From IMG/VR virus record IMGVR_UViG_3300024518_000036: a stretch of DNA of 64,000 nt; one strand, 5' to 3'. Numbering within the stretch: the first letter of the stretch is position 1; every line of letters starts with the position of its first letter. The notes under the pieces were generated by a model. The model worked only from the letters and a program-made list of their open reading frames with translations, was not told the DNA's origin and did no database searches. Below, in pieces: positions 3,165 to 63,904 of the stretch. Source of the DNA: an uncultured virus (IMG/VR IMGVR_UViG_3300024518_000036). Taxonomy: Duplodnaviria > Heunggongvirae > Uroviricota > Caudoviricetes. The translations under genes were made by a program, and so were the position numbers.

Positions 3165-3911
3165 TCAGCTCCCCAAGAAAAAGGTGTACCCCTCGACGTC
3201 TCCGTCGGGATCGTCCGCTTCAGCCAGCAGTTCGAGGTCGTGTCTTGGGATCACGTCCACCGACTCCAAGAAGACGTGATGCTCGTCTTTCGTCGTCCTG
3301 ATCTGCTGCTCTGCGATCACACACAGCTCCAACCAAGTCGGGTTGGTGAGGATGTCAGAGAAGTAGAGCTTCGCCTCCTCTCCACCCCAGAACTTGTCTG
3401 GATGAGCCACTACGATTCCACGGCCCTTGAAGGCCACCTCGTCGAGGTTGTCGCCCGGCTCGTCGTCATAGGCGGAGTAGCGGACGTGAAAGGGAGGTTC
3501 TAGTCCAGCTGCCCGGAGAGCCGCTTCAACTCGAATCTCTTGCTCATCGGACAGGCGAAACGACTTCTTTTCCTCCTCCGAGTAGTCGGAGTCTGGCTTG
3601 TCCCACCACTTGGGCTCTGGCTCGGCCCCCGATTCCACCCACTCGACCGGCTCGATGACGACACGGTACTCAGGACCGTACTCGTCGATGGCCTCGCAGT
3701 AGCCCTTGTGGGCCGCCTCAATGCCCCGGTAGGCACCGAGGCGTCCCTTCGGCCACCGCGCCTCCAAGGGACTGGAGGCGTCGGACCCGAACTCATCACG
3801 CCTACGAACGCAGACGTAGAAATCAGTCTTGCTCTGTCGAATCATCTTCTCTCCTTTCCAGAACAGGTGGTCTTTCCCCCTCGGGTCCCGCTGCTGCTGC
3901 CCGCTCATCAA
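3165..3911 (-). CDS. Hypothetical protein with near-C-terminal HDLELLA tag
   Basis: 248-aa ORF overlapping the stop codon of the upstream gene. Confidence 0.65.
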   Translation of the reverse strand: MMSGQQQRDPRGKDHLFWKGEKMIRQSKTDFYVCVRRRDEFGSDASSPLEARWPKGRLGAYRGIEAAHKGYCEAIDEYGPEYRVVIEPVEWVESGAEPEPKWWDKPDSDYSEEEKKSFRLSDEQEIRVEAALRAAGLEPPFHVRYSAYDDEPGDNLDEVAFKGRGIVVAHPDKFWGGEEAKLYFSDILTNPTWLELCVIAEQQIRTTKDEHHVFLESVDVIPRHDLELLAEADDPDGDVEGYTFFLGS

Positions 3912-5230
3912 GCCCCCTCGGGCCAGCTGACCAAGCCGAGACCCACGACGAGAACGAGAACCTCTTCGAGGGGAAGCTCGGGCTCTTCTCCACGAGCAGA
4001 CCGGAGAGCACGCACTTCCGGCGTGTCCATGCGCTCACGAAGACGAGACAGCTCCGCTGTAGTTCCCTCTCCGAGGAGGAAGTTGATGGTCTCCTCCACA
4101 TAATCGAACTCGACCGGCTCCGGGTCACCCGTGTCAAGCGCCGGAGGCACGCTGTTCCCGGTGGCCTCCCGAACCTTCTCCCACCAGTTGGCCAGAACGT
4201 TCTCGTCCGGCCACGTGTAGACCGTTCTTTTGGCCTCTTTGCCGCTCGGCAACCGGACCTTAGTCACGCTGGGCAAGAGGTCGGGATTCTCCTTTTCCAA
4301 GAGGCTCAGAGCAGCATAAAACAGGCTCTTGCTAACTCCCAGAGCGGACGCTGCAGCCCGGACCCCCACAACCGGCGGGGACGACATCGGCACAGGCGCG
4401 ACGGGGACGGGGTGCCGGACGGCTGTGATGCCTGCGTGGGCTTCGACGGTATCCACCACCTTGCCGACCCAGTTCAGCCTCTTCCACTCTTTGAAGCGGT
4501 AAGCGTTGGCCTTCGATTTCACGGGATCGCTGGTGATTTGCCACACCACCCGAGAAAAGACCCAGTCCCCTCCAGTCGAGGTTGCCTTAACAATGGACGG
4601 CTTCTTCAACTTCGGAGAAGCAACGAGATCCTTCACAGTCCCTACCCAAACCGCACCGGTGGGAGGAGACTTGCAAGTGGAAGGACGAACAACAAGAGCA
4701 TAGACGCAGCCCGGCTCTTCTTGAAAGAAGGAGTCGGGTACGGTGAAAGGCAGCCCCAGCACACCCCTCACCCACTTCTCACCGGACGACCTCGTAACCT
4801 CCCGGTACTGGTAATCGTCCTTGTTCGGCTTCTTGCTTTGCTCCGCCTGGGTCGCCAGAGGCAAGCCGCGCGCTTCGAGGTCCCGTCCCTCTTGATACCA
4901 AGACCGCACGTGCTCTTCATCCCGCCAACGCCAAGAGAACTTGTTGGTTCCCTGCTGACTCGACACCTTCAGCGGGGCGTTGCTTCCGGCAAAGTCGAGC
5001 AACAGCAGCTTGCTAATGGCGTACTGCGTCACACCGAGCACTTTGCTCGCTCCCCTATGCCCACGGATCTCTTCATCTTTCCTACTCAACTCTTCCATAC
5101 TCAGCTCCTTTCTTCTGTTTTGGTTCCAGTGCGTCGAGCACCAGCCCCTAGCTCTGTAATCACGCTTGCAGCCAGAAACGGTGCAAGTCCTTTCTTCTTC
5201 ACCAACAGCCCCTTCGGCTGCCAAGTGCAC
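3908..5230 (-). CDS. Putative DNA-binding protein (Cys/His finger plus two HTH-like segments)
   Basis: CTVSGC...ARGWCSTHW finger. IRGHRGASKVLGVTQYAI and VVGVRAAASALGVSKSLFY look like repeated HTHs. Confidence 0.55.
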   Translation of the reverse strand: MHLAAEGAVGEEERTCTVSGCKRDYRARGWCSTHWNQNRRKELSMEELSRKDEEIRGHRGASKVLGVTQYAISKLLLLDFAGSNAPLKVSSQQGTNKFSWRWRDEEHVRSWYQEGRDLEARGLPLATQAEQSKKPNKDDYQYREVTRSSGEKWVRGVLGLPFTVPDSFFQEEPGCVYALVVRPSTCKSPPTGAVWVGTVKDLVASPKLKKPSIVKATSTGGDWVFSRVVWQITSDPVKSKANAYRFKEWKRLNWVGKVVDTVEAHAGITAVRHPVPVAPVPMSSPPVVGVRAAASALGVSKSLFYAALSLLEKENPDLLPSVTKVRLPSGKEAKRTVYTWPDENVLANWWEKVREATGNSVPPALDTGDPEPVEFDYVEETINFLLGEGTTAELSRLRERMDTPEVRALRSARGEEPELPLEEVLVLVVGLGLVSWPEGA

Positions 5231-5263
5231 CTATCACTTTCCAGATCTTCATTGGGTCATCTC

Positions 5264-5698
5264 CTACCAGTTGTATGTTTTGAAGCCGGTTTTCGTCCCG
5301 GCAAGTGTTTCGAGGTCACTGACCTCATAGGTGTCTGCGTCCTGGTCGAAGTTGACCAGAATGCAGTCGTTGTCGAGGGCGTACTTGACGATGGGCTTCA
5401 GCCACGCTGGACAAGGCAGGTGAGCCTCTTCCCCCGCACTGGTCAGGAAGAGAACCCAGCCGAACGCGTGGCTCTCGGCCCGAGCCCCACCCCAGTCAGG
5501 GTTAGGCCCGGGCATGTGTGCTGTGCTGAGATCCAGCGAGATCCAGCGATCAAGCAACGTCTGGTCCGGGATCTCGACATTGCCCGCTTCAATGTGAGCA
5601 ACGATGCAGCTGTCGTCGATCTCACCGAGGATGTCTGCGGCTTCGATCTCCCCATTACGGACAAGGTACGGTGGAATTTCCACTGTGACTGTGGGCAT
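5264..5698 (-). CDS. DUF5983-like small phage/plasmid protein carrying the SDLETLA tag
   Basis: LDLSTAHM...GW...PAWLKPIVKYALDNDCILVNFDQDA...YNW pattern, recognised from memory. RBS AACACAGGAGG. Confidence 0.55.
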   Translation of the reverse strand: MPTVTVEIPPYLVRNGEIEAADILGEIDDSCIVAHIEAGNVEIPDQTLLDRWISLDLSTAHMPGPNPDWGGARAESHAFGWVLFLTSAGEEAHLPCPAWLKPIVKYALDNDCILVNFDQDADTYEVSDLETLAGTKTGFKTYNW

Positions 5699-5762
5699 GA
5701 TTGCCCTCCTGTGTTTTGAGCTGTTAAGCTCGGTTGTTGTGAGCCTTTAGGCTCGGTTGAAA

Positions 5763-8377: not shown

Positions 8378-8862
8378 TTGCTCTGCCCCTGGATGCGCTC
8401 CTCGCACCACTCGACTGCGTCCTCCCGAATCATCTTCCAAATCCGCTCCTTGAAGCGCCGCTTGGTGTTGCCGCAGCAGTTCGTCCTCAGCCCAAGGTGA
8501 GCACGAACCTCGTCGGCAGTGATGTAGCGGTCTTCCCACTTCTCTTCACCGTCCTCACCCTGCTTCATGCGCAGCCGGGCTCCTGAAATGCGCTGTTCAA
8601 TCATCACTTGCACGACCACCTCCTCGACGTTCTTCACGTCGATCTTCCCCTCGCAGCCAAGACCCATCATCATCCAGATGAGTGAGTTGGTGATGGGGTT
8701 CAGCACCTTGATGTTGCCATCATCGTCCTCGTGCCACGCCGGAGCGAAGAATCCCTGAGTCCCGTGCTTGCGGATGCTGTCGGCTTCCTCTTGGTCCGTG
8801 ACGACGTCCCAGCAGACCTCCTCGTGGTTGTCGATGTCAGTTAAATCCCAGTTGAGCGACAT
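8374..8862 (-). CDS. Hypothetical phage protein
   Basis: 162-aa ORF with GGAGG RBS and TAATG coupling. Confidence 0.7.
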   Translation of the reverse strand: MSLNWDLTDIDNHEEVCWDVVTDQEEADSIRKHGTQGFFAPAWHEDDDGNIKVLNPITNSLIWMMMGLGCEGKIDVKNVEEVVVQVMIEQRISGARLRMKQGEDGEEKWEDRYITADEVRAHLGLRTNCCGNTKRRFKERIWKMIREDAVEWCEERIQGQSK

Positions 8863-9605
8863 TACGCCTCCTTCTTCTTGTTAGTTTTCTTGCTTGTAAG
8901 CACAGCTAGTTTGACCCTTGCTTTTGCCAAAGCGACTTCGCCCTTCTGCTCCCTTTCGACCGCCTCTGTCAACTGTTGTTGAAGCTGTCGCCGACCCAGC
9001 CTCAGCCAGGTGAGATCCGATGTGTACCGCCGAACCTTGTCTATAGCCCCGGTCAGCTTCTGCGCGTGGCTCGACCCTTTCTCGGCCTTCTCGCAGATGG
9101 CTACTTCGCAAGACGGGAGGACTACCGTGTCCAGGAAGTAATAGGCACAGTTCTGAGGCCAACCGTACTTCCCCGGCTCCTCCTCCGCTTGATCTCGGAA
9201 CTCTTGTCGGAGAGCGTTGCCCAGAGAGGAGGTTGGTCCGAGGGCAAGAAGCACACCCCGAGCGATTTCTCGCAGGGACTTTCGTGGGATCATGGGGTCT
9301 TCTCTGCCCAAGGCTGCTACCGTTTCCAGATCAGACCCAAACAGGCCATTGCGACGAGAGATGCCTACCCGAAGCCGAGTATGATGACTCTGGTGATCTC
9401 CGGTCCAGATGGTTTGGGCCTCGGCTTTAACCACACCCGATTTACCCCCGTAGTAACGAATCCAGACCTCATCAGGAACCTGGATCAGCGGTACATCAGC
9501 AGGATGTCCAGGAGGGGGATTTAGTCCCTTGGCGGAGTTCATCACGCGCTCTATGAGGTATTGAAGCCCCTCACTGTCGTAATAGGTCGTGTTACTCCAC
9601 TTCAT
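8862..9605 (-). CDS. Paralog family A, member 1 (NxTxY-x3-L N-terminus, C-terminal coiled coil)
   Basis: NTTYYDSEGL; ISRRNGLFGSDLETVA. Confidence 0.7.
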   Translation of the reverse strand: MKWSNTTYYDSEGLQYLIERVMNSAKGLNPPPGHPADVPLIQVPDEVWIRYYGGKSGVVKAEAQTIWTGDHQSHHTRLRVGISRRNGLFGSDLETVAALGREDPMIPRKSLREIARGVLLALGPTSSLGNALRQEFRDQAEEEPGKYGWPQNCAYYFLDTVVLPSCEVAICEKAEKGSSHAQKLTGAIDKVRRYTSDLTWLRLGRRQLQQQLTEAVEREQKGEVALAKARVKLAVLTSKKTNKKKEA

Positions 9606-10312
9606 CGGTCGCTCCTACCTTGCTCCATGAGCTTGTTCTGAAGCGCAAGCTGAGCTTCTGCCTCAAAGACGAGAGACTTGGCCTCCGCCTCACGAGCATC
9701 CTGGAGGCGCTTCGTGTACTCAACGAGAAAGCGCTGGACTTTGCTGACTTCTATCTGGTTGCCCTCACGCCTAAGGGCTGCTCGGTGAAGAAGTACCTCT
9801 TGGAAGGCCACCTCTTTTCGCCACCTCAGAATGTCTTTGGCCGGGTCTTTCTTGTCAAAGCGGAGACGTAGACTATGTTGAGCAATCGCTTTGCTGGCCC
9901 GGAAGCTACGGGACGGACGAAGACAAGACCACGAGGGACCCCTCTCGCTATGTTTCCACCGAACCATCAAATAGAGACGCCAGAGAATCTGTTGGATGAC
10001 CTCTTCTGGTGCTTCGTTGCTGGCCGCAGCTGCAAGCACTTCGAGTTCGTGCACTCCATCGAATCGAGTGGGGCGAGTAATACACAGGTTCTTGCTCCTA
10101 TAGCCCTCATCACCATTTCGCAGAGCCTTCACGAAGAGACCAGTGTTAGCCAGCTGCTGGTACTGTTCTTTCATTGACTTGCTCGGACTGTAGTAAGAAA
10201 CAGTGAGTTGCTCGGGTCTCCACTCGGTGCCTTCCCAGGCTGCCAGAACAATCTTTTCCAGATCTTCCGTGCTGTAGCGGGTCGTGTTGAAAAGTACCAA
10301 GTCATTGGGCAT
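9602..10312 (-). CDS. Paralog family A, member 2
   Basis: NTTRYSTEDL; ITRPTRFDGVHELEVLA. Confidence 0.7.
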   Translation of the reverse strand: MPNDLVLFNTTRYSTEDLEKIVLAAWEGTEWRPEQLTVSYYSPSKSMKEQYQQLANTGLFVKALRNGDEGYRSKNLCITRPTRFDGVHELEVLAAAASNEAPEEVIQQILWRLYLMVRWKHSERGPSWSCLRPSRSFRASKAIAQHSLRLRFDKKDPAKDILRWRKEVAFQEVLLHRAALRREGNQIEVSKVQRFLVEYTKRLQDAREAEAKSLVFEAEAQLALQNKLMEQGRSDR

Positions 10313-10754
10313 CGTCTTCCTCCTGAGCCCCTTTTACAAGAGCCTCCAAGTCGGAAAGGACTGTGATGGTCCCTGATATATTGGCCTTGTTCTTGAAGCG
10401 GTCCAGCGCCTCTTCCGCATCAGCCGGGGTTGAAGCCCGAACCAACACCCGGCCTTCGAGGACCAAACGCAGGGATCCCCCCACGTTCATCAGCTCCAGA
10501 TGAGCCTCTTCGAGTACGAAGGGACCCACACGGAGCTTCCTCTGTTGGGCTCCTGCCCGGCAGATCTCTTCAAGGGCGTGGTTCTTCCACCCAGCAACCG
10601 CCTGCTGAACATCTACACTGGCACAGCCTTTGGCGTCGACCTCCACCCCCCAGAGATCTTCTGGCCACCGAGCGGAGCTGCGGCCCGACTTCTCTCTCTT
10701 CTCTTCCACCCACGACCGTTTGAAGACCACCCTGAATTCGTTCCACTCACTCAT
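10302..10754 (-). CDS. Hypothetical protein with C-terminal SDLEALV tag
   Basis: 150-aa coupled ORF. Confidence 0.65.
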   Translation of the reverse strand: MSEWNEFRVVFKRSWVEEKREKSGRSSARWPEDLWGVEVDAKGCASVDVQQAVAGWKNHALEEICRAGAQQRKLRVGPFVLEEAHLELMNVGGSLRLVLEGRVLVRASTPADAEEALDRFKNKANISGTITVLSDLEALVKGAQEEDDAQ

Positions 10755-11587
10755 GAGACCTCCCGCATGGCTTTGGTGCCTTCTTCGGCAAGAACCACCA
10801 AGTCAGGCCGCGTCTCTGTGGTGATGTACGCAGGGCCGTTGTCGGTCCCGACATTGCAGTCCCTTTCTTCGTGGTGGTACGCCACCAGGGAAGCAAAGTG
10901 TGCTCCTGCGAAGGAGTAGCCGCCGCCGTCAATGCCAGCGAGCCTGTACTCACAATCCTCCCCCCAGTTCCCCGTGCCTCCGCAGTAGTTAGCAACCCGA
11001 AAGCCCGCTGCCTTCAGAGACGCGGTGCTAATCCGACTGTCAGGCATGAAGGCGAAGGCGTGAGCCCAAGGGAAGCCGTGGCTCTCATGACCGTGCTCAC
11101 TGTGGTAATCCACATCGCATTGCTCGGCGGCCTCGTTGGCTTCTCCTTCATCGAGCCAGACGTAGACGCCAGTAGTGCCTTCCAGCTCCACCTCGTGGTC
11201 GTACCAGGGCTTCCAACTGCCAACGTACCCGGTATCGTCCCCAACCAGGTTGCCATAGTTCTCTTCTCGAATGGCCCAACCTGAATCGCTCGTGTTGGTG
11301 AGGGGAACGCAGCAGGCCTCGGCATCCTCTTGCTCCTCGGCGAAGACCTCGCCACACTCCGAGCACTCCCAACGGACCCACGTGACCCGCTCGGCCTCGT
11401 GAATGCTGTCGGGCTCAATCTGCCACCGCTCGAAGGCGGTCTCTGATTCGGTGTCCAGCAGCCCCATCGGAATGGCTGGCATCATTCGATTCATCCACTT
11501 GGTCACGTAGGACTCGAAGGTCTTGTCCTTGAAGTTGCACCTGTCAGGAACCAGGTCCTTTAGGGGCACGGTTGGGTAGTTACTCAT
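10751..11587 (-). CDS. Acidic hypothetical protein with CxxC motif
   Basis: The ATG at 11587 follows AAGGAG (alternative start 11623). WECSECG; C-terminal PDLVVLA. Confidence 0.65.
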   Translation of the reverse strand: MSNYPTVPLKDLVPDRCNFKDKTFESYVTKWMNRMMPAIPMGLLDTESETAFERWQIEPDSIHEAERVTWVRWECSECGEVFAEEQEDAEACCVPLTNTSDSGWAIREENYGNLVGDDTGYVGSWKPWYDHEVELEGTTGVYVWLDEGEANEAAEQCDVDYHSEHGHESHGFPWAHAFAFMPDSRISTASLKAAGFRVANYCGGTGNWGEDCEYRLAGIDGGGYSFAGAHFASLVAYHHEERDCNVGTDNGPAYITTETRPDLVVLAEEGTKAMREVS

Positions 11588-11619
11588 GGCTTCTCCTTTT
11601 TCAAGCATGATCTCGGCCG

Positions 11620-12465
11620 TCATGCTGTCTCCTTCAATGGTCTGTAGATGTCGACCTGCACCACGTCCTTGTCGTTCTTGAACGGTCCTTCCGTCACTGC
11701 CCACTTGCCGACCGACTCGACACCAACCTGGAAAGGGACTGCGATGGGGTGAATCTGACCGCTCACCGTGGTCGGGAGCGGTAGAGGCAGCGTGCCTCGC
11801 GTCACCACGACGGTAACGGGCCGCGTGTCGTCCTTCCAGCCTTCAGCCGTCTCCCGACACCACTCCTCTGCGGACTCATGACCGTAGAAGCCTCCACAAG
11901 AATCCACAATCTCGCCGTCGCTGTCTTCGATGCGAGCCCAGTGAACGTCTCCGGTGAGGTACTGGCTCCACTCGGACAGGATGCAGTCAGCGATCTTCTG
12001 TGCGTCGAACTCAGGATGAGCCAGTCTCTCCAGCTCGGAGGACCACGGCACCTTCACGAAGATGTAGCCGTTGGCCTCCGCGTGGTCGGAGATGTGAAGA
12101 GCCGCTCCGTTGCTGCCGTAGTCGATTAGCCGTACAGGGAAGACCTCGTAGCCTCTGCTGCATTCAGTCTCCCAAACCTGCCTCAGTTCCTCCTCATCGT
12201 CAAACCAGGTGTCCATGTCGCAGCCAAGAGACCCGTTGTTGTCCTGACTCCATTCCCACGGACCTTCGCCCCAGGGGATGCAGCGACGAGCCTCTGCCGC
12301 CGTCTCGCCCTCTCGACCCATCTTGCTGTACCGACGCGCATCAAGCTCGCCAAGGAATCCGTCTGTGTTTCCCCACTCTTCGGGGCTCTCAGCATCATCA
12401 TCGCTGGCAATGATGCACTTGAACCCCCCATGCTCAAACTCAGTGTGATCGTAGCTCATACTCAT
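11620..12465 (-). CDS. Hypothetical phage protein
   Basis: 281 aa with AAGGAG RBS. YLTGDV...VDSCGGFYG pattern; internal SELERLA. Confidence 0.7.
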   Translation of the reverse strand: MSMSYDHTEFEHGGFKCIIASDDDAESPEEWGNTDGFLGELDARRYSKMGREGETAAEARRCIPWGEGPWEWSQDNNGSLGCDMDTWFDDEEELRQVWETECSRGYEVFPVRLIDYGSNGAALHISDHAEANGYIFVKVPWSSELERLAHPEFDAQKIADCILSEWSQYLTGDVHWARIEDSDGEIVDSCGGFYGHESAEEWCRETAEGWKDDTRPVTVVVTRGTLPLPLPTTVSGQIHPIAVPFQVGVESVGKWAVTEGPFKNDKDVVQVDIYRPLKETA

Positions 12466-14418: not shown

Positions 14419-14832
14419 TCATGATGCCTCCTTTTCGGCGTACTTGGTGGCAGCCAGCTTCTCCAGCTCAGACGCCTTCTTGATTAGATAAACGTGAGTC
14501 TTCAGCCAGCGTGGACCCCCAACCTCGTAGCCTCCATAGACCTTCCGTTGGTAGGTGTCCCCCGGCTGAATCAGCCCTCCGGCGTGTTCCTTTCTGGCTC
14601 GGTGAATCCGAGTCTCCGAGAAAGTCTCGACGAGGGCTCCGCGCTTGCAATCGGGACAGGTCTTCTCACGAGCGGGGTCGTCAGCGCGCCAGACCCGATT
14701 CTCGAAACAGTGGGGACAGGATTGCCACTCGCCTCGCTCCTCCTCTTCCCCGTAGTAGGCGTCACAGGGGCTTTCACAACGACAACTGGGAGCAGAGCAG
14801 GTTCGCTTTCGATTCCCGTACCAATAGCTCAT
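14419..14832 (-). CDS. Cys-rich (zinc-binding) protein with C-terminal SELEKLA tag
   Basis: The ATG at 14832 overlaps the upstream TGA. Contains CPHC and CPDC. Confidence 0.65.
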   Translation of the reverse strand: MSYWYGNRKRTCSAPSCRCESPCDAYYGEEEERGEWQSCPHCFENRVWRADDPAREKTCPDCKRGALVETFSETRIHRARKEHAGGLIQPGDTYQRKVYGGYEVGGPRWLKTHVYLIKKASELEKLAATKYAEKEAS

Positions 14833-44728: not shown

Positions 44729-45084
44729 AGACGTCTAATCGCATCGCCCTGCTGTACGGGCTCTCTCTGGCGGGTGCAGGCGCCGTCTCCTTCTATCGAG
44801 GGCGTCGAGGTCAAGAGCTGATGCTCGACACCGCGCTGCACGGTGCTGTGGCTGGAACCGCTTTCAACGTGGTTGGGTGGCTGTTGCTGGAGTCCGGCGA
44901 CGAAGCTCCGATCCTTGCTCAGGCCAACGCGGGCGTCAAGGGAATGGGGAAGATGTCCAAGCAGGCTATCGCCTTGCTCAACAACTTGGACACCGACTCG
45001 TTGTACGAGGCTCTCAAAGAGAACGGTGTGAAGATCGCTGATGTGCCCGCCAATCCGTCGATCATTACGCAGGACATGACCTGA
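44725..45084 (+). CDS. Small membrane protein
   Basis: Two hydrophobic segments. Confidence 0.65.
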   Translation: MKTSNRIALLYGLSLAGAGAVSFYRGRRGQELMLDTALHGAVAGTAFNVVGWLLLESGDEAPILAQANAGVKGMGKMSKQAIALLNNLDTDSLYEALKENGVKIADVPANPSIITQDMT

Positions 45085-49935: not shown

Positions 49936-52614
49936 ATGGCCGTGGCGAATCCCGGTCAGTTCTTCACGGACTGGCACCAGGAAAGGAGCAGCGGCGGTCC
50001 CGGTGGAAGCTCCCTGCTCTACTCGGCACACCGTCGTGGTGACGACTGGCGGCATCGCCAGTACGTGTATCTGGAGATCGTCTGGCAGAGGAAGGGCTGG
50101 CCACAGCGTCTCGATGAGGGGGAGAAGACCTACATCCAGACGGTGCTTCTGCACCAGGGTCCGTCGTCTCAACGGATGAAGGCGATCCCGGGCGCGAGCT
50201 ATCAGCGCGAGATGACCGATGAGGACACTCGGCGGTCGTCACAGCATGAAGCCACCAAGTGGGCGAACCGATGGCTCGATGATCATCTCGTGCCCGATCT
50301 GGAGAAGCTCGGAGCAGTGGCCAAAGAGAACCCCTTGTGGGAAGTCCCGTCAGATCCTGACGCTCGCGAGATGATTCTGGGGTCGCTCTCGGGACATCCT
50401 GGGCGCAAGAACCCTGAGACTGAGGGCTACCCCGACGACGCTGTGCTGCCTGGCCCTCACGGCGACTGGGAAAGCAACCTGTCCTGCCTCGATGCGAAAG
50501 GGGCTGTGCTGGCGGCAATGCGGAACATCCCGAACGGGGTGGGCACCGACGGTCTTCACTGCACCGGGGTTTACGTCAATGAAGGCGGAGGGCTGTTCTG
50601 GTTGGTCCGAGGCCGCGGGTTCGGCAAGCACCTTGCCTGGAAAGAAGGAGGCAAAGTCCGCACGATCCCGGTGACCTGCACGAATTTTCCGAGGTATCGG
50701 CGCTTCCGGATCAGCGAGGTTCCTGCGATCAAGGTGTTGGCCATGCTCGGCAAGCCGAATCCCAGAACGGCTCTGCGGTGGACCTACGACCCGAGCAAGA
50801 TGCAGTGGGTGGCCGAACACGCCGGGCGCCGCTGGTTTTTGGAGCGGCGAGATGGTGGCGACCCTCGATACCCCCGCGAATACCTGTACCAGACGACGCT
50901 CGGCGGGCGCTACATGGACAGGGTCGCAAAACGTGACGCGAAACCGGTCCTGACAGCCAGCGCCCGGAAGCGACGGAACATCAGGGCGAAGGAGTGGGCC
51001 GAGGGGTTCATCTTGTCGGATCTGGAGAAGCTGGCGCGTTCGATGAAGAAGAATCCCAAGAAGAAGGGCAAGCGGAAACGCAGAGAAAGGGGTATCCGGC
51101 GTGGTGCAGGAACGGTCCCCGCTCCCATGATGCGGATCAGCTCAGCTGGGTTCCCTTCGACGCGAGCCGATCCTGACTACTACCCTCCCAAGCCCTGGGG
51201 TCGACGGGAAGACGCGTGGCAAAAGCAGATCAGCATCGGCGACCGGGTGCTGGTGATGCTGGGCTCTCACCTGCACCATGTTGGCTACGCCGTGGGAACC
51301 GTCCTGGCTGTAGACGAGCGCCGAGAGTGGGAGAAGAAGGCGCAGGTTCGGCTCGACCCGACCGGTGGACAGCACCCGTGGGAAGGGGTCTTCTACTACG
51401 ATGAGATCGTTGAGGTCATCAAGCCGGGGCACCCCCTTCTTCAGCTTGCTGAGCTGGGGAGCGTCGAGAACCCCAGTAGAAATAACCCCCCAAAGCAATT
51501 GCCCCGAACTTTGGTGTTGAGGTGGTACAAGGGCTTCGCGACCTTCTTCAAGCCGGAAGACGAAGATCCGCGCTGGAGGAGGTTCGGCAAACACTGGGGT
51601 GTGTACGAGGGGGATCGTCTTTTTCCGTCTACACAGGATGCTGTCTACAGCCATCCCCTCGAAGGGTTACTCGTCACGGTCGCGCCGCTCCTGTACCCGT
51701 CGCAGCTTCCCCCATTTAACTCTGTGACTTGGGGCGCCAAGACGCGCCGCAAGTCGCTTTGGCAGAAACCGGGAGGGCGCCAGGCTTTGTGGCTGATCGA
51801 CATCCGAGAGCCAGGGAAGAGGTCAACTATAATAGGGGACAAAGGGGAGCTATTTCACACGAGGGAAGCGGCCATGCGGTACGCGGACAAGCTCTTTCAA
51901 GAGCGATACCCGCTCCAGTCGATCGGGAGCGTCGAGGCTGCGCTTGAGAACCCGCTCTACTCTGGCAAGACCCCGGCCAAGGAGCAGGCGCATCAGTACG
52001 CGGCCGAGTGGGCAGAGGACAAGGGCGTCAGGATCCAGGCTTACCTGGGGCTCTTCATCGACCGTGACGTGCACTACAGGGCTTGGGGGAACCGAGGAAA
52101 GGAGGCGCACGTCTACACCTTCGACCAGCACGGTCAGCCCCGTGCTCTCCTCGTTCGCGGTCTGTTGGTTGAGCGGACGTCCGGTGTTCTTCCAACACCG
52201 ATTCCGGGCCCCACTCGCTGGGTCCTCACTGGAGAGTCCTGGCCTCGAAGAGATCTACCGGCGCTTATTCCGGTGGCATTGAGCGACCTGGAACAGCTTG
52301 CCGAGGTGAAAAAGGAGTACGGCCGCAAGACGCGCAAGCGGCGGAAGAAGAAGGAGCCTTGGAGGAAGAATCCACAAGCTCCGTGGAAGCGCATCCACGA
52401 GAACCGCTGTCACCTGATGAAGGACGGCGTCTCCTACCATGTTCACCGAGTCGGTCGGGAGGGGAGGGACATGAACTGGGCCGTCTCGATGTACGGGCCT
52501 GCTCAAGCAAGGAGAGTGCTGGGTCCCTTCCGCACGAAGAAGGAGGCCATGAACGAAGCCGAAGCTCATGCCTACGGTGATCTATGGGTTCTCTCCAAAG
52601 AGGGGAACTCCTGA
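49936..52614 (+). CDS. 892-aa polyprotein-like protein built of small modules ending in tag plus NP
   Basis: PDLEKLGAVAKENP, PAIKVLAMLGKPNP, SDLEKLARSMKKNP, HPLLQLAELGSVENP, YPLQSIGSVEAALENP and SDLEQLA...RKNP. Confidence 0.75.
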   Translation: MAVANPGQFFTDWHQERSSGGPGGSSLLYSAHRRGDDWRHRQYVYLEIVWQRKGWPQRLDEGEKTYIQTVLLHQGPSSQRMKAIPGASYQREMTDEDTRRSSQHEATKWANRWLDDHLVPDLEKLGAVAKENPLWEVPSDPDAREMILGSLSGHPGRKNPETEGYPDDAVLPGPHGDWESNLSCLDAKGAVLAAMRNIPNGVGTDGLHCTGVYVNEGGGLFWLVRGRGFGKHLAWKEGGKVRTIPVTCTNFPRYRRFRISEVPAIKVLAMLGKPNPRTALRWTYDPSKMQWVAEHAGRRWFLERRDGGDPRYPREYLYQTTLGGRYMDRVAKRDAKPVLTASARKRRNIRAKEWAEGFILSDLEKLARSMKKNPKKKGKRKRRERGIRRGAGTVPAPMMRISSAGFPSTRADPDYYPPKPWGRREDAWQKQISIGDRVLVMLGSHLHHVGYAVGTVLAVDERREWEKKAQVRLDPTGGQHPWEGVFYYDEIVEVIKPGHPLLQLAELGSVENPSRNNPPKQLPRTLVLRWYKGFATFFKPEDEDPRWRRFGKHWGVYEGDRLFPSTQDAVYSHPLEGLLVTVAPLLYPSQLPPFNSVTWGAKTRRKSLWQKPGGRQALWLIDIREPGKRSTIIGDKGELFHTREAAMRYADKLFQERYPLQSIGSVEAALENPLYSGKTPAKEQAHQYAAEWAEDKGVRIQAYLGLFIDRDVHYRAWGNRGKEAHVYTFDQHGQPRALLVRGLLVERTSGVLPTPIPGPTRWVLTGESWPRRDLPALIPVALSDLEQLAEVKKEYGRKTRKRRKKKEPWRKNPQAPWKRIHENRCHLMKDGVSYHVHRVGREGRDMNWAVSMYGPAQARRVLGPFRTKKEAMNEAEAHAYGDLWVLSKEGNS

Positions 52615-56016: not shown

Positions 56017-58842
56017 ATGGCACGAAAGAAGAAGTGGGGCAGGCGCGTGCTGAACAACCCGGATGTTCCGTGGACCAGGGCTTTCAACAACCCGACGATC
56101 CTCGTCACTCGCGGTCCCGACCGCTACCAGATCCCGTCCGACTGGCCCGAAGAGGACTTCCAGTGGGGTAAGCAGCCTCGTCTTGCCCAGTGGACTGGCT
56201 ACCCGCAGTACAGCTACGAGCAGTTCTATAGGACGAACCCGCGTGTGGGCTCCGGTGCCGTCACTCCACGGGACGTGATCCAAGAGCACGACGCGCACTA
56301 CATCGGTTCAGTGAAGGTGAAGAACAAGACCTTTGAGGTCTATGCAGACTACAAGCTGCGTGGGTTCTACGCTTTTGTGGAGGGCTCGCCTATGTACGCC
56401 GTGGTACGCGGCCTCGCCCCGGGGGGCAGCAGCGAAGGGCCATCGCACCCCATAATCGCACGCGCCTACGTCAAGAAGCAGCTTTTGGCGGGTGAGTATG
56501 AGGTAGTAGCCGTTGGGGTGAGCCTCGTGAACCCGCGTAAGAAGACCAAGGCGGAACTGATCGAGGTGCTGCTCGCCATCGAGTTCGACGTCCAGCCCGA
56601 GGCGTCCGGCGCTGACGTGGAAGAGAAGCGCGTGAAGTTGAAGAAGCTGCGTAAAGGCCTCATCGAAGACGCGCTTCTACGCTACCAGGACCACGCGCAG
56701 AAGATGCCTCTCGGGAACCCGCGTCGTCGTCTTTGCCGTCAGAACCCTTCTGACTTCGATGCCAAGGCGGTGCCCTGGAACGTGGCGACTAACGCAGGTC
56801 CTTTCCGCCCAGCACTGTTCCCCTACGGACAGGGCGGCCGTCCCGCAGAGTACGAGTTCAAGAATAACCCTTCCAAAGAAGACCTGATCAGGGCCCTGGC
56901 GCGCGCCATCTACGAGACCGTCGAGGCAGCTGGGCCGCAGGGAGCACCTGAGAGCCCGATCTACATGGCGATGGAGCAGAGGGGCATTCCTTTCAATTCG
57001 ACGAGGCAGCTCGTCGACGGTCTGATCCGCGCCGGCTACATCACCCGCCAGCACAATGTCCTTCGTGTCACCCGTGCCAAGAAGAACCGGAGCCAGTACG
57101 TCGGTTCAGGGGCTCGGGGTGGCTTCGTCGGTGCAGAAAGGGACCAGTACAGCTACGACCAGTTCTACCGTGCTAACCCGAGAAAAAGATCAACTGTAGA
57201 GAACGAGTACACGGAGGTTCGCGGGTCGTTCGCGCCTATGTCAATCGACATGCCTGACTCGCCTTACGGGTACGAGATCCCCGGAGAACGAGGAAGAGGC
57301 GGGGGCTTTGCTGGAACCACGCACATCACGCACCACCCGCCGAAGACGTCCCACTACAGGAAGCGGAAGAAGGACAAGAAGAAGCGCCGCAAGGCCCGTG
57401 TCTTTGTTGAGACTCACCGCTGCTACAACGAGTCGCTCGAAGACCTTCCACAGTACAGCAAGAAGAACCCCCGTCTCTCCGCAGCCGAGCTGAGGGCGAA
57501 AATCGCAGAACTGGACAAGCTGTACCAGTACGACCAGATCGACGACGAGACGTATCACCGGCTGCGTTCTTCGCTGGTGCTTGAGCCCCCAAGACGGGGC
57601 GAAACCATCGGCTCGCGGTTGGCCGCGATGGAAAAGGAAGTAGCGGAACGCGGAAGTGCAGGACTCTACCCACACGCTCGTCGGATTCCGCCACAGATGC
57701 CTTGGAGGGTGACGAAGTTCCTTCTTCTCCAGACCAAGAAAGTGAGTGACCCCCAAGCTCTCCAGAAGGGCGTGCCCCTGAGGCAGGCCGGGCTAGGGTC
57801 AGAGTTTGGTGTCCCCTTCCCTACGGCCATCTTGCCTCGGCATTTGGAAGCAGCAAGAGAAGAGATGCGGTCGTGGAAGACGCCTGGCGGCCCTGGCGCG
57901 CCTGAAACTCAGAAGAAGATTTCGCATAGGATCGCCCAGTACATCGCGTACGGGGAGGTGCTGAGCGCCATGGGAGCGAGCCGGGAGCGTATCGGCAAGT
58001 TCATTCGTGCTACCAAGCTGGCTTCATACCGGCCGGGGTACCGAAAAAGCAAAAGCCCGCGACGTGCCGCGACTTCTTCGCTGCATCCCTGGTCCATCTT
58101 CGGCCCAGGCGGTCCCAAGGTGGCGAATATCCCGAGCTGGGCTCGCCGGTTTCCGGGCATCACAGTGACTGAGCGCGAGGCTCGAAGGGGTGCAAAGGCG
58201 GAGCGCATTCGCAAGAAGAAGGCGCTGAGAAAGCCGCCGAAGATCACCGGCCCGCACGCATCAGAGCTTCGCCGTCTACGTGCCGCTCAGCTTCGGGACC
58301 AACGAGAAGGCTGGGTCCAGGCCGAGCCCGAGGCCCACTGGCGGTCACAATCCAGGCAGGAGCGGGGAGACCCCCACGCTGACTTCATGTACCCGGAAGG
58401 GGCCGAGGCTCACTTCCGTAGTGGAATGCACCCGAAGGCCATGCAGAACCGTGGTTCCCGTGGCGGCTTCGTAGGACAGGAAAGGGACCAGTTGCCGAAC
58501 TGGTACTTCCTCAAGCCCGGAGCACGGATGTGGCCAGCGGGGGATCCTCGCCGTGGCGCACGGGACGACATGCACGCGGAAGAGGTCATCAAGTACATGA
58601 ACCGTGGCTTTGGCAAGCGGTCGGAGTACCCGGGTCTCATCAAGAAGCTCGCTGAGCGCTACCCCGTCGAGGACGCGGCCAACAAGAGCATCTGGACGCT
58701 TTACCGTAGGTATCGGAACAGCATCGACGAGAAGATGTCAGACCGGGGCGTGAGCAAAGAGTTGCCGACCATGCCCGAGCTTCGTGGCCGTGAGCTGGCT
58801 CTGGCCAACCGTCGCCGGGGGCGCAAGCGCCGGGGGCAGTAG
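56017..58842 (+). CDS. 941-aa basic modular protein with many NP motifs and internal repeats
   Basis: Nine NP motifs. QYSY(E/D)QFYR(T/A)NPR occurs twice and RGGFVG(A/Q)ERDQ occurs twice. Confidence 0.75.
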   Translation: MARKKKWGRRVLNNPDVPWTRAFNNPTILVTRGPDRYQIPSDWPEEDFQWGKQPRLAQWTGYPQYSYEQFYRTNPRVGSGAVTPRDVIQEHDAHYIGSVKVKNKTFEVYADYKLRGFYAFVEGSPMYAVVRGLAPGGSSEGPSHPIIARAYVKKQLLAGEYEVVAVGVSLVNPRKKTKAELIEVLLAIEFDVQPEASGADVEEKRVKLKKLRKGLIEDALLRYQDHAQKMPLGNPRRRLCRQNPSDFDAKAVPWNVATNAGPFRPALFPYGQGGRPAEYEFKNNPSKEDLIRALARAIYETVEAAGPQGAPESPIYMAMEQRGIPFNSTRQLVDGLIRAGYITRQHNVLRVTRAKKNRSQYVGSGARGGFVGAERDQYSYDQFYRANPRKRSTVENEYTEVRGSFAPMSIDMPDSPYGYEIPGERGRGGGFAGTTHITHHPPKTSHYRKRKKDKKKRRKARVFVETHRCYNESLEDLPQYSKKNPRLSAAELRAKIAELDKLYQYDQIDDETYHRLRSSLVLEPPRRGETIGSRLAAMEKEVAERGSAGLYPHARRIPPQMPWRVTKFLLLQTKKVSDPQALQKGVPLRQAGLGSEFGVPFPTAILPRHLEAAREEMRSWKTPGGPGAPETQKKISHRIAQYIAYGEVLSAMGASRERIGKFIRATKLASYRPGYRKSKSPRRAATSSLHPWSIFGPGGPKVANIPSWARRFPGITVTEREARRGAKAERIRKKKALRKPPKITGPHASELRRLRAAQLRDQREGWVQAEPEAHWRSQSRQERGDPHADFMYPEGAEAHFRSGMHPKAMQNRGSRGGFVGQERDQLPNWYFLKPGARMWPAGDPRRGARDDMHAEEVIKYMNRGFGKRSEYPGLIKKLAERYPVEDAANKSIWTLYRRYRNSIDEKMSDRGVSKELPTMPELRGRELALANRRRGRKRRGQ

Positions 58843-59777
58843 TGAGGAACAACCCAGCATTGAGGCCAGAGGGGCAGGTGGTTCCTCGCTGGTGGAAGCA
58901 GTCAGGTCCTTTCTTCGAGGTTCGCCTGTACGATGCTCGGTGGGGTCCAGGCGAGGCGCCAGAGCTGGGTCGGATGACGGTGGGCGTGGACGGCATGAAC
59001 TGCTACAACCCGCACACGGGTCAGACCGGTGCCGAGGTCTTCGAGTCCTTGGCTGCGGACGGTTGGGGTCCGTTGATCTACGACTTTGCTGCTCTGATCG
59101 CCACCAACGAGTACGGAATGCCTCTCGTGTCCGACCGCTTCACGGTCAGCAAGGAGGCGAAAGGTGTCTGGGACTACTACGATGAGCATCGCTATGATGT
59201 CTCCAGGGCGGATGTCTCGTCGGGTTCTTGGCGGTGCGACCCTATTTCTGAGCTGGCGCCGGAGTGGGGTATCCGTATGCCAATCTACAACTTCTCGGAG
59301 TACTGGAACGTCGATGGGTTGGCGTGGTTGCAGAACAAGCCGTGGAAGGCCTGGCAGCGGGCCCGGAAGCGGAAGAAGAGGGCCCGGAAGAACCCGCTAC
59401 CGAAGGGAATGCCGACTGAAGAAGAGGCCCGGGAGTTCATTCTCTGCCAGCTCAGAGAGGTCCACAACCGACACCTACGCCAGCCTGGAAGCCGCTCCAA
59501 GCCGAAAGGGATGCTCTACGGCCACGGGGTGGGGCAGAGAGTGAAGATCGAGTACCTGGGTCCGAGGAAGGAGAAGAGGCCCAGAGGAGCCCTCGACGAC
59601 TACGGGCAGGCGTTCAAGATCACCTTCGAGCGGCAAGGGAAGGACGCCTATTGGGTGGTGTACGCATGCAGATGGCGCGGCCGACTTCGCCAAGACGTTG
59701 CGACCACTCCGTTGGGGTACTGGGGGCCCGTCCCGCACTTGGAGCTGCTCTCCTGGGAAGCCGAGGAAAACCGATGA
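58842..59777 (+). CDS. Two-module protein (RNNP..., RKNP...) ending in PHLELLSWEAEENR
   Basis: 311 aa. GWGPLIYD..SD..VSKEAKGVWDYY is reminiscent of GNAT-like phage domains (weak). Confidence 0.65.
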   Translation: MRNNPALRPEGQVVPRWWKQSGPFFEVRLYDARWGPGEAPELGRMTVGVDGMNCYNPHTGQTGAEVFESLAADGWGPLIYDFAALIATNEYGMPLVSDRFTVSKEAKGVWDYYDEHRYDVSRADVSSGSWRCDPISELAPEWGIRMPIYNFSEYWNVDGLAWLQNKPWKAWQRARKRKKRARKNPLPKGMPTEEEAREFILCQLREVHNRHLRQPGSRSKPKGMLYGHGVGQRVKIEYLGPRKEKRPRGALDDYGQAFKITFERQGKDAYWVVYACRWRGRLRQDVATTPLGYWGPVPHLELLSWEAEENR

Positions 59778-62392: not shown

Positions 62393-63042
62393 AGAGCCCT
62401 TACGACGACCTGAGAGCTGCCCAGACTCTGGCGCAGGGACAACGTCTCTACAAGAAGCTCGGACGCTACCTCTCTGGGGATACGAAAGGAGTTCGCACTG
62501 CGGCCACGCGTCGAGCAATTGCCACGAGGCGATGGCGGGACGAGGCCAAGGAAGTCAGGCGCCAGTTGGAGCAGCGCTTCGGTGACACGGTTCGTCTGAC
62601 CAGTGCCACCATCTACGCCACTGCCGCCTCCGGAAAGGAAGGGGGGAGGGCAAGGCGTGTGGAGCCAACTTGGTCCCGGCGAAGGCACTTCACCGCCCCG
62701 AAGCCGGATCGAGAGGCTCTACATGAACCATACATCCTTCATGTTCCTGTAGACGACGTGACCTATGAACCCCTGGGCGTCTATCCCAACTTGACAGACG
62801 CTCTTCAAGTCGCGGCGAATCTTCGCCGGGTGCGAAAGGGCATCACACCGGGAGTGACATACAAGGCGTCCGAACTCGTCCTCTTACAAGAGGAGCTTCG
62901 GGCTGTAGACTCGACTCTGGGGTCCCTGACGGTTCACCTCAAGCGTCTCATGGAGCGGAAGAGGAGGCTGGAGAGGGACATCGAGCAGCTGAGCATACGA
63001 GAGCAGGACTTGGGTAAAGGAATGGGAGCCCCACCAGAGTAG
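62383..63042 (+). CDS. Hypothetical protein with C-terminal coiled coil
   Basis: 219-aa ORF overlapping the end of the helicase gene. Confidence 0.6.
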   Translation: MAVKSPYDDLRAAQTLAQGQRLYKKLGRYLSGDTKGVRTAATRRAIATRRWRDEAKEVRRQLEQRFGDTVRLTSATIYATAASGKEGGRARRVEPTWSRRRHFTAPKPDREALHEPYILHVPVDDVTYEPLGVYPNLTDALQVAANLRRVRKGITPGVTYKASELVLLQEELRAVDSTLGSLTVHLKRLMERKRRLERDIEQLSIREQDLGKGMGAPPE

Positions 63043-63107
63043 TTGCCCCTTCTTGCTCGCCGGTTAGTGTTGTCATCTGGCAAAGCACAGGCCGGCGAGG
63101 AGAGGAC

Positions 63108-63584
63108 ATGGGAGTCACATACAGCTGCAAGATGGCCGTTGGGGTCGTCGTTCACGAAGTGGACGACTTCTTCTTCGAGGTCAAGAAGACCAAGGAGACC
63201 GTGGAGGCCGACTGCTCGCATCCCGAGGGCCAAGGCAACCGCTTCTGCCCGAAGTGCGGGGCCGAAGGTGAGCACGAGATCGAGCACGAGAAGAAGACAC
63301 CGAAGAAGGAGTTTGCCGGCGACCTCGACGAGGACGCGGAGGACTGGATGTACGACGATCCGGTCTCCATTGCGGGCTTGGACTTCTTCACCTTGAAATA
63401 CGACCCCTACGGCACCAGTGTCTACGTCTACGGGGAGGAGCTTGGGTCGGCTGGTGGCTACGGAGCCACTACGGTCTGCGAGGATGCTGACAACATGACA
63501 GTGACCATCGAGCGCGTGCAGACCCGGCTGGTGGAGCTAGGTCTGCCGAAGGCCCAGATCTTCCTGTCGATGAGCGCGGGATGA
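63108..63584 (+). CDS. Acidic protein with zinc-ribbon (FCPKCG)
   Basis: GAGG RBS; NRFCPKCGA. Confidence 0.7.
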   Translation: MGVTYSCKMAVGVVVHEVDDFFFEVKKTKETVEADCSHPEGQGNRFCPKCGAEGEHEIEHEKKTPKKEFAGDLDEDAEDWMYDDPVSIAGLDFFTLKYDPYGTSVYVYGEELGSAGGYGATTVCEDADNMTVTIERVQTRLVELGLPKAQIFLSMSAG

Positions 63585-63904
63585 TTGATCTATGGGCCGT
63601 GATGTCGCACCCCTCGGGGGAGCACCCCAACGACGTGGTGCACCCAGACGGGTGGCCGTCGGGTGAGTCCCAGGCGGACTACGAACCTGCAGGTCCGTGG
63701 GAGCCGATCTCCTACGACAGCACATCCTTCAAGTTCATGTGGAGGAGACCCTATCGAGAGAAGAAGTCCGACCTGGAGAAGCTGGCGACTGCGAAGTCGG
63801 CCGTCAGCAACAGGGAAATCGAGGAGCTGGAGCGCATGGCGAAGGGCGTTCTTCGCGTCACGGCTGATCTCCGCTCCATTCGTGACGTGCTGGAGCAATC
63901 ATGA
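63581..63904 (+). CDS. Hypothetical protein with SDLEKLA tag
   Basis: ATGA-coupled 107-aa ORF. Confidence 0.65.
   Translation: MIDLWAVMSHPSGEHPNDVVHPDGWPSGESQADYEPAGPWEPISYDSTSFKFMWRRPYREKKSDLEKLATAKSAVSNREIEELERMAKGVLRVTADLRSIRDVLEQS

Follow-up and report, generated by a model that had tools for sequence, protein, structure and literature searches.

The window analysed here, the whole 64,000-nucleotide (nt) stretch taken from an uncultured virus record (IMG/VR IMGVR_UViG_3300024518_000036), covers 64 kb of a contig of about 150 kb, and statements below on missing genes hold for this window only. It represents a large phage-like mobile element, possibly a phage. Our main finding is a short peptide tag, S-D-L-E-x-L-A in its simplest form, present at 23 clear sites in 19 of the 89 proteins called in the window (22 sites in 18 proteins detected by a position matrix, plus SELERLA at 12019-12039). 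Selection on this tag acts at the peptide level. We propose, with a probability somewhat better than even (roughly 0.55), that it is a portable, N-capped, amphipathic docking helix of about 12 residues.

Genes were called by a home-made procedure, in which a codon-usage score trained on the 15 longest open reading frames (ORFs) was combined with dynamic programming and interval scheduling; the 89 genes code for 19,786 amino acids (aa), and their start codons are approximate. The exact pattern DLExL occurs at 15 sites in 13 called proteins, three of the copies being located in the protein encoded at 49936-52614, against a chance expectation of 0.63 (2000 within-protein shuffles, maximum 4). The first-pass annotation of this DNA had reported the same number of sites in the same ORFs, had estimated about one chance occurrence and had suggested shuffled controls, over which the enrichment is now evident. 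The positions it gave point to the right ORFs and mark ORF boundaries, not the motif itself; all nine near variants named there are present in the proteome. Of the 16 occurrences of DLE.L that a six-frame search recovers, 15 fall in the frames of called genes, and the other is in a non-coding frame (59607-59621, minus strand). Among all three-plus-one patterns (abc.d) in the proteome DLE.L is the commonest, the next non-trivial pattern reaching n=7.

The position matrix, circular in that it was refined on its own sites, separates 22 sites scoring at least 19.7 bits from the next score of 11.3, and shuffled proteomes contain 0.25 sites at a threshold of 12. The full consensus reads (L/V at -2), S, D0, L1, E2, x, L4, A5, x, x, K/A/G8, x, E10, N11, often P12. 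Leu1, Glu2 and Leu4 are each occupied in 21 of the 22 matrix sites, followed by Asp0 (17), Ala5 (15), Ser (13) and Lys8 (6). The pattern L..L[AS] falls within the last 25 aa of 14 of the 89 proteins (2.06 in shuffles), and four looser C-terminal relatives of the tag (PDLVVLA, RDPLVKLA, SDPLRQLA and FDLLRLA) are placed at the end of the list below. The DNA pattern WSNNNNYTNGARNNNYTNGC has 12 matches in the window against 1.45 in shuffles; comparison of coordinates identifies nine of the 12 as in-frame tag sites. The tagged bodies had been described as unrelated, and indeed all-against-all BLASTP links only one paralog group (8862, 9602 and 15189) among them, and three different Pfam families are tagged. 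Because of these three paralogs, the number of independent tagged protein bodies is about 17, not 19. The sites along the window are as follows.

3222-3242, minus strand: HDLELLA, 24 aa from the C-terminus of ORF 3165-3911 (248 aa)
5300-5320, minus strand: SDLETLA, 17 aa from the C-terminus of ORF 5264-5683; the DUF5983_C match ends at residue 120 and the tag begins at 122
9315-9335, minus strand: SDLETVA, internal, residue 92 of 247, paralog-family ORF 8862-9605
10031-10051, minus strand: HELEVLA, internal, residue 89 of 236, paralog-family ORF 9602-10312
10335-10355, minus strand: SDLEALV, 16 aa from the C-terminus of ORF 10302-10754
12019-12039, minus strand: SELERLA, internal, residue 142 of 279, ORF 11620-12459 (phrog_6186)
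14452-14472, minus strand: SELEKLA, 16 aa from the C-terminus of Cys-rich ORF 14419-14832
14865-14885, minus strand: SDLEVLA, 17 aa from the C-terminus of ORF 14829-15182
15552-15572, minus strand: NDLEVLA, internal, residue 115 of 240, paralog-family ORF 15189-15911
16748-16768, minus strand: SDLERLA (followed by ATKEN-stop), 11 aa from the C-terminus of Kyano_Gp96-like ORF 16730-17140
18536-18556, minus strand: variant AALELLV, 17 aa from the C-terminus of ORF 18500-18997
19312-19332, minus strand: SDLEQLS, residue 156 of 266, ORF 18994-19794 (DUF6878)
24034-24054, minus strand: ADLEKLA, internal, residue 149 of 309, ORF 23566-24495
23611-23631, minus strand: weak second copy SSLEQIA, 20 aa from the C-terminus of ORF 23566-24495
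37433-37453, minus strand: SDLEQLA (followed by AVKAEN), internal, residue 95 of 176, ORF 37202-37732
39828-39848, plus strand: TDLELLG, 19 aa from the C-terminus of ORF 39639-39890, the weakest of the set
45417-45437, plus strand: SDLEQLS, residue 113 of the 711-aa basic protein 45084-47219
46014-46034, plus strand: SDIEALA, residue 312 of the same 711-aa protein
50293-50313, plus strand: PDLEKLG (followed by AVAKENP), residue 121 of the 892-aa protein 49936-52614
51016-51036, plus strand: SDLEKLA (followed by RSMKKNP and a Lys/Arg-rich stretch), residue 362 of the 892-aa protein
51430-51450, plus strand: variant HPLLQLA (followed by ELGSVENP), residue 500 of the 892-aa protein
52282-52302, plus strand: SDLEQLA (followed by EVKKEY and a Lys/Arg-rich stretch), residue 784 of the 892-aa protein
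59733-59753, plus strand: variant PHLELLS, 13 aa from the C-terminus of ORF 58878-59777
63767-63787, plus strand: SDLEKLA, residue 64 of 107, ORF 63581-63904
10787-10807, minus strand: degenerate variant PDLVVLA, 18 aa before the stop of ORF 10751-11623
23373-23396, minus strand: degenerate variant RDPLVKLA, 16 aa before the stop of ORF 23346-23573
25850-25873, minus strand: degenerate variant SDPLRQLA, 17 aa before the stop of ORF 25820-26287
26323-26343, minus strand: degenerate variant FDLLRLA, 13 aa before the stop of ORF 26302-27120

As had been noticed at first pass, the codons behind these peptides differ freely. Serine is encoded by TCC, TCG, TCT, AGC and AGT, that is from both codon boxes, Leu1 by CTG, TTG, CTC and CTT, Glu by both its codons and Ala by all four. 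Moreover, the peptide is kept in a relative, L013, whose GC content is 0.50 as compared with about 0.60 in the window. Free codon variation together with retention of the peptide across this difference places the constraint on the protein.

This relative was found through a GHKL-like protein of the window (19794-21188), which has 41 homologs; a metagenome scan with their alignment returned 29 loci. L013, 21 kb of an 86-kb contig from another metagenome, is syntenic with the window and shares the following proteins with it.

DUF3987 protein: 80% identity
ParB-like protein: 62% identity
Protein 1708-2919: 53% identity
DUF2201 protein: 53% identity
ATPase: 51% identity
Kyano_Gp96-like protein: 47% identity
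GHKL-like protein: 41% identity

An unbiased pattern count in L013 ranks LE.LA first (7 occurrences, 0.31 expected), and the DNA pattern WSNNNNYTNGARNNNYTNGC has six matches there against 0.41 expected. The Kyano_Gp96-like protein of L013 carries its tag at the C-terminus, orthologous to that of the window, and a member of the paralog family has it at residue 96 (92 in the window). The counterpart of the 711-aa protein 45084-47219 was identified in L013 by position, since both follow the same two small genes; its tags stand at residues 97 and 304, compared with 113 and 312 in the window, and the two proteins share no other detectable similarity. The motif stays constant while the protein bodies diverge beyond recognition.

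Within proteins, the tag favours the C-terminal end. Eleven of 26 sites of a loose pattern lie no more than 25 aa from the C-terminus, against 3.06 expected under uniform placement in their own proteins (P ~4e-5), and none of the 26 lies within 25 aa of the N-terminus. In the first-pass statement that the tag is usually found within about 20 aa of the C-terminus or at a domain boundary, the "usually" is too strong: a position no more than 24 aa from the C-terminus is seen for only six of the 15 exact sites. Internal tags look like module ends: in three tagged proteins (DUF5983_C, Kyano_Gp96, DUF6878) the Pfam match ends 2 to 34 residues before the tag. Small proteins are tagged once and giant basic proteins two to five times, the 892-aa protein 49936-52614 at residues 121, 264 (weak), 362, 500 and 784. 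Tag-bearing modules measure about 65-290 residues, nine of the 12 clearest falling between 89 and 149.

The conserved positions follow a Ser-x-x-Glu capping box at i, i+3, i+4 and i+7, a spacing which is the signature of a short amphipathic helix. AlphaFold2 models built on small alignments agree with the helix that had been claimed at first pass. In the Kyano_Gp96-like protein 16730-17140 the tag is predicted to form helix 126-135 directly after the last strand (mean predicted local distance difference test, pLDDT, 81; predicted template modelling score 0.77), next to the domain and with residue block 121-130 at pLDDT 79. The internal tag of 15189-15911 is predicted as helix 115-123 in a weak model (mean pLDDT 64). 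A Foldseek search of the Kyano_Gp96-like model against PDB gave no match at E <=0.001.

Homologs outside the group of tagged elements tell in two families whether the tag belongs to the fold. Kyano_Gp96 homologs occur in 81 deposited phage records, none covering 80% of the query, with coverage from residue 1 to about 91-105. Two of the three phage homologs compared (Vibrio and Pseudomonas T7-like) end at the strand just before the tag, as does homolog P0050, and the third (Synechococcus) continues into an unrelated C-terminal stretch without the tag. Of five further homologs, with identities down to 41%, three keep G-S/D-D-L-E-x-L-A, one has a degenerate form and one (104 aa) stops before the tag. 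The last residue of a plasmid DUF6878 protein aligns three residues before the tag of 18994-19794; another DUF6878 homolog, P0002 (165 aa, 81% identical), stops five residues after the motif, on a contig of 976 bp, and may be truncated. Because outside homologs end just before the tag or lack it, the tag is appended in both families, and for these two the earlier claim of a tag added to ordinary families holds.

A docking helix fits these data best, because one helical face is conserved with an invariant acidic residue beside it, and because the tag is portable, placed at module ends and kept while the bodies diverge. According to our proposal, the Ser cap, Asp, Leu1, Glu2, Leu4, Ala5, often Lys8 and commonly an Asn-Pro end would form the helix, which a clade of large uncultured phage-like elements would attach to the C-terminal end of unrelated folded modules. 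The face made of Leu1, Leu4 and Ala5, together with the invariant Glu, would plug into one common partner, so that between one fifth and one quarter, approximately, of the window's proteins would be recruited to the same machine or place. At first pass the tag had been called an address label read by one receptor; the label is consistent with selection on the peptide, the modelled helix, unrelated bodies, the appended position and retention in L013. The single receptor is inferred, and may be of any of the kinds suggested at first pass (virion or compartment import, an AAA+/VWA chaperone, a degradation signal or a host hub).

The window does encode a pair of proteins that could act as such a reader.

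28073-29515, minus strand: DUF2201 protein, candidate reader, with zincin-like HEVMH (residue 82, counted from the called start) and a vWA-like domain with DTSGS; 53% identical in L013
29853-31067, minus strand: ATPase, candidate partner of the reader, PHROG 1297 "ATPase"; 51% identical in L013

The DUF2201_N match has E 6e-22, and an alignment of 78 homologs shows conservation of 90% or more for each of H82, E83 and H86; in the vWA-like domain (28073-29446; E 7e-13) DxSxS...TD is invariant or nearly so in the same 78. The ATPase matches PHROG 1297 at E 7e-44 and no Pfam or NCBIfam family; its pairing with a vWA protein suggests that it is of MoxR type. Both genes stand in the same array in the window and in L013. 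In a published analysis of vWA-MoxR systems, the vWA domain is proposed to capture a peptide, after which MoxR remodels the bound protein, and the substrates of zincin peptidases linked to these systems are described as small, divergent proteins whose C-terminal peptides are conserved (PMC7159879). Tentatively, and with a probability well below even, the tag may be the substrate handle of a virus-encoded AAA+ (MoxR)/vWA/zincin machine. The metal site of the vWA domain would grip the invariant Glu of the acidic helix, the tagged protein would next be unfolded or remodelled by the ATPase, and trimming or destruction would fall to the fused peptidase; the same machine might also cut the polyprotein-like giants into modules. 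If so, the timing, processing or clearance of roughly one in four accessory proteins of the element would depend on this machine, a mobile element would own a tag-directed proteolysis or remodelling system, and the widespread phage MoxR-DUF2201 pair would gain a function. Complex prediction for DUF2201 (78-row alignment) with the tagged Kyano_Gp96-like protein, run with no controls, scored 0.00 with a mark of 0.32 and is uninformative on binding.

Several observations weigh against the docking helix or against this candidate reader. Some 60% of the tag sites are internal, which fits some tag readers poorly and means that a free C-terminus is not needed. Strings such as KKSDLEKLARAT in a thermosome and KQSDLETLAKEA in an ornithine transcarbamoylase occur in solved proteins with non-significant E-values, in regions which we take to be ordinary strand-helix units, so that there is nothing exotic in the tag sequence by itself. 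In the paralog family (8862/9602/15189/15908 and relatives), the place of the tag is taken in tag-less homologs by a helix of different sequence; here the tag may be an integral helix that was converted, not appended. The possibility, raised at first pass, of finding the tag residues in outside homologs as an integral part of the fold thus does not apply to Kyano_Gp96 and DUF6878 and applies in part, as a helix of other sequence, to the paralog family. As to the ATPase/DUF2201 pair, 82 other DUF2201-bearing loci (427,098 aa of ORFs) show no enrichment of LE.L[ASG] (42 against 43.6 expected), and locus L009 encodes a DUF2201 protein 52% identical to ours, yet its homolog of 11620-12459 is tag-less. 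The DUF2201 family is very large (13,508 matches at E <=0.001), so that co-location is weak evidence; the DUF2201 alignment found only two distant matches in species genomes.

Among the alternatives to a docking helix, the tag could be the recognition or cleavage site of a maturation protease, the giants being polyproteins cut into modules and the small proteins losing a short C-terminal tail. The spacing of sites in the 892-aa protein (about 100-285 residues), the two sites of the 711-aa protein and the two-unit layout of 23566-24495, with tags at 149 and (weakly) 290, all suit this idea, as do the Asn-Pro and the Lys/Arg-rich linker that often follow internal tags. The same array encodes an intact HExxH peptidase domain, protein 16730-17140 ends exactly at Asn, and the possibly truncated P0002 stops shortly after the motif. 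However, at least seven conserved positions with helical i/i+3/i+4 spacing and a Ser cap suit a docking helix better than an extended substrate. No S80/HK97-type prohead protease is recognised among the 89 window proteins (Pfam and PHROG scans), nor is a capsid gene found, and the surroundings of the tagged genes consist of replication-type and accessory genes instead of a structural module. We regard a protease site as doubtful.

A sorting signal for transfer, by which tagged proteins would be loaded into the capsid, exported or injected (as virion cargo or type IV secretion substrates) to act in the next cell, seems unlikely to us. It would agree with the C-terminal bias, with the many tagged proteins that are small, unrelated and of no known function, and with precedents such as the T4 capsid targeting sequence and encapsulin cargo peptides. 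Relatives of the DUF6878 protein, which were not found in phage records, reside on plasmids (12 of 26 typed conjugative), and a ParB-like protein at the window edge has weak similarity to PRTRC ParB. On the other hand, most tag sites are internal, and the acidic helical tag is unlike the basic or disordered type IV signals. Pfam, PHROG and NCBIfam scans of these 64 kb of the ~150-kb contig recognise no capsid, portal, terminase or tail gene, and no encapsulin or secretion gene is detectable there.

The helix might also have no separate reader, either capping its own domain or associating with itself, the multi-tag basic giants serving as scaffolds. A helix is part of the fold in tag-less homologs of the paralog family, the tag of 16730-17140 is modelled with reasonable pLDDT (79) beside its domain, strand-helix strings of similar sequence occur in ordinary solved proteins, and multivalent giants with DNA-binding-like basic stretches suit a scaffold-client layout. 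But there is no need for folds without kinship to use one and the same set of seven residues as a private cap, homologs outside the clade manage without the helix, and a motif that stays constant while bodies diverge beyond recognition is hard to reconcile with it; we consider this improbable.

Still less probable is a sequon for post-translational modification, in which a host enzyme or one encoded by the element would act, for example, on Ser, on Glu or on the Lys further along. Short motifs on many unrelated proteins do resemble sequons, and the layout recalls the short helical substrates of phosphopantetheinyl transferases, but Ser is present in just 13 and Lys8 in six of 22 sites, the invariant positions are Leu, Glu and Leu, and no candidate transferase is recognised in the window (Pfam, PHROG and NCBIfam scans). 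A signal in the nucleic acid (promoter, methylation or restriction site, recombination boundary) with the peptide as its by-product would suit the several tags lying about 50 nt upstream of the next gene start, but is effectively refuted by variation of third codon positions and even of the Ser codon box while the amino acids stay, by the coding frame of 15 of 16 six-frame matches and by the retention of the peptide in L013, and we give it practically no weight.

The docking helix we favour has partial parallels among known systems. The T4 capsid targeting sequence is likewise one short amphipathic peptide placed on several unrelated phage proteins as an address for one partner. It stands at the N-terminus of proteins destined for the head interior and is cut off by the prohead protease, whereas our tag, of other sequence, is C-terminal or internal, with 0 of 26 sites within 25 aa of the N-terminus, and no prohead protease or capsid family is found among the 89 window proteins. 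Sliding-clamp-binding tails (T4 gp43, gp33 and gp55; bacterial QL[SD]LF) and PCNA PIP boxes also plug unrelated proteins into a hub by a short motif. Such motifs have an aromatic end and occupy the extreme terminus of a handful of replication and transcription proteins; the tag has no aromatic consensus position, lies 11-24 aa from the end or internally, and is found on about 19 of the 89 called proteins. Viral maturation proteases (T4 gp21, phiKZ gp175, adenain, pS273R of African swine fever virus) have sites that share with the tag a proteome-wide distribution and several copies in large polyprotein-like proteins. The consensus sites of such proteases, poxviral and adenoviral ones among them, comprise 3-5 residues on structural proteins, while the tag conserves at least seven positions with helical spacing. 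Encapsulin cargo peptides have a different consensus, of Gly-Ser-Leu type, and no encapsulin or capsid family is found in the window (64 of ~150 kb).

The vWA-MoxR-linked peptide-processing modules resemble our element in combining an ATPase (read here as MoxR-type), a vWA domain and a zincin-like peptidase, and in fast-diverging proteins that share a conserved C-terminal peptide; they belong to cellular conflict systems, in which VMAP, iSTAND, FtsH or a beta-propeller serves as third component, and their precursors are small, with FxSxx, RxD or acidic peptides (PMC7159879). In our element, unlike these modules, peptidase and vWA are fused in the DUF2201 protein, the tag is S-D-L-E-x-L-A with many copies internal, and it is carried by real domains, in proteins as long as 892 aa. 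General Pfam and NCBIfam scans of the window revealed no VMAP, iSTAND, FtsH or beta-propeller component, no dedicated search having been made. In one or more defining features our element departs from the T4 targeting sequence, the clamp tails and the vWA-MoxR modules, and probably also from encapsulin peptides and protease sites. Chimallivirus nuclear import similarly addresses many phage proteins selectively to one destination, but by recognition of a surface patch, the study having found neither a conserved signal sequence nor a motif (PNAS 2024, PMC11087766); our element has a linear motif, and no compartment or chimallin-like gene is known for it. Three looser resemblances were rejected: to 2A-like NPGP skipping sites, as the tag sites read NPL, NPK or NPS and never NPGP; to the SUMO-like psi-K-x-E, which by eye fits only two tag sites; and to the ssrA/SspB-like AA-x-x-EN, which is too loose.

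A literature search by motif strings, shared C-terminal phage motifs and DUF names, covering papers without their supplements, returned no description of the tag. Shared short address peptides, such as signal peptides, clamp-binding motifs and degrons, organise cell biology, and to our knowledge few have been characterised in phages. In the 64 kb analysed, from an element that is largely uncharted, the helix marks about one protein in five, and it also marks proteins of the element's relatives. It would be a direct bait for a hub of the element's biology, and the identity of its partner could group some 20 proteins of no known function into one pathway.

The motif is limited to a subclade. Two IMG/VR records that share only the GHKL-like protein with the window have one match of the DNA pattern (G001, 61.8 kb) and none (G002, 77.5 kb). 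Locus L003 (13 kb, 21 ORFs) contains no tag sites, and in homologs of 11620-12459 from L009 and L003 the motif is missing at the aligned place of SELERLA. Searches of phage and plasmid collections with pieces of the window, at DNA and protein level, found no close relatives, nor did single-protein scans of IMG/VR.

Some further features concern the tagged proteins and the candidate reader. Lys/Arg runs precede or follow tags in the giant proteins (around 45084-45200, 51040-51100, 52310-52370 and 59380-59420), about 25 basic residues run at the N-terminus of the 711-aa protein 45084-47219, and long runs likewise occur in its 402-aa counterpart (L013 280-1488); these runs look like nucleic-acid-binding linkers. 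The Asn-Pro dipeptide is found 64 times in the proteome (31 expected), KNP 11 times (1.8) and NNP seven times (0.9). The form (K/N/E)-N-P-(R/S/K) is concentrated in four large basic proteins of the plus strand (45084-47219, 48082-49791, 49936-52614 and 56017-58842), with 5-9 copies in each against about one expected, and several tags end in ...E-N-P. Members of the paralog family (236-341 aa) share a conserved N-x-T-R-Y-x-T-x-D-L start and a coiled-coil-like C-terminus. The family has four copies in the window (8862-10312 and 15189-16729, minus strand) and three in L013 (12273-14935), and occurs also at L005 501-1274 and L009 3405-4196; some members have the tag and others an ordinary helix.

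A start of the DUF2201 gene at an upstream ATG (29515) would give an N-terminal K-S-D-L-E-L-A-A-L, a near copy of the tag at 29432-29452 (minus strand); the L013 ortholog lacks this extension. In IMG/VR locus L075 (1746-6674), the 5 kb or so upstream of the AAA+/DUF2201 genes contain six small ORFs of 57-115 aa. Five of them end in F-x-x-x-F-[RK]-[RKI]-F with 0-2 residues after it, the sixth has a looser form of this ending, and one ORF of another such locus, L083 (6262-6919), has the same ending. These endings may represent another tail dialect beside the AAA+/DUF2201 pair. Two de novo tests on C-terminal tails, asking whether each DUF2201-bearing phage has a tail tag of its own, were of too low power to decide: they gave 5 for the window against a null maximum of 4 (gapped four-residue patterns) and 34 against 24 (ungapped tail-to-tail scores), and left L013 undetected.

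A phage nature of the element is favoured by phage-type PHROG and Pfam matches in the window (phrog_6077, phrog_554/Kyano_Gp96, phrog_1314/1297 and a DUF5856-like protein) and by relatives of two window proteins in IMG/VR contigs. The lack of recognisable capsid, portal, terminase and tail genes in the window, the plasmid-borne DUF6878 relatives and the merely weak likeness of the ParB-like protein to PRTRC ParB speak against it or leave it undecided. Scans of the window for tRNA genes and Rfam families were negative. The point from which transcription diverges, near 44.3 kb, adjoins the DUF3987 gene (43082-44257, minus strand; L013 2228-3412). Its product is 80% identical between two elements 10 GC points apart, its neighbours 39-62%, and it is an unusually constrained protein, possibly a replication hub; its alignment found no relatives in species genomes or IMG/VR. 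The phrog_6077 protein, encoded at 19794-21188 (minus strand, 465 aa), is the GHKL-like one, and we take it to be a GHKL-type ATPase. N28, D31, G32 and G84-x-F-G-E-G are invariant in 21 homologs, and HATPase_c appears in the precomputed domains of one homolog; a Pfam scan of the window protein itself gave no match.

A gene for a TnpB/Cas12f-like RNA-guided nuclease is located at 34336-35943 (minus strand; NCBIfam guided_TnpB, E 7.5e-17; Pfam TNB domain), and beside it about 1 kb (33350-34336) has neither a convincing ORF nor an Rfam match. The 941-aa protein 56017-58842 had no usable match in the ESM Atlas; its residues 550-653 share a domain (E 5e-10) with two neighbouring paralogs, 31195-31782 and 31906-32658 (minus strand; E 6e-18 to each other). 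These two end in ...S-P-L-E-V-A-T-A-L-S-K-L-N and ...S-P-L-D-I-A-Q-A-L-A-K-L..., a different, tag-like helix. Finally, residues 413-567 of the 569-aa protein 48082-49791 (plus strand) resemble phage proteins of the Dps/ferritin-like type (match to phrog_3636 at E 3e-8; those to DUF5856 and Dps fall below the cut-off).

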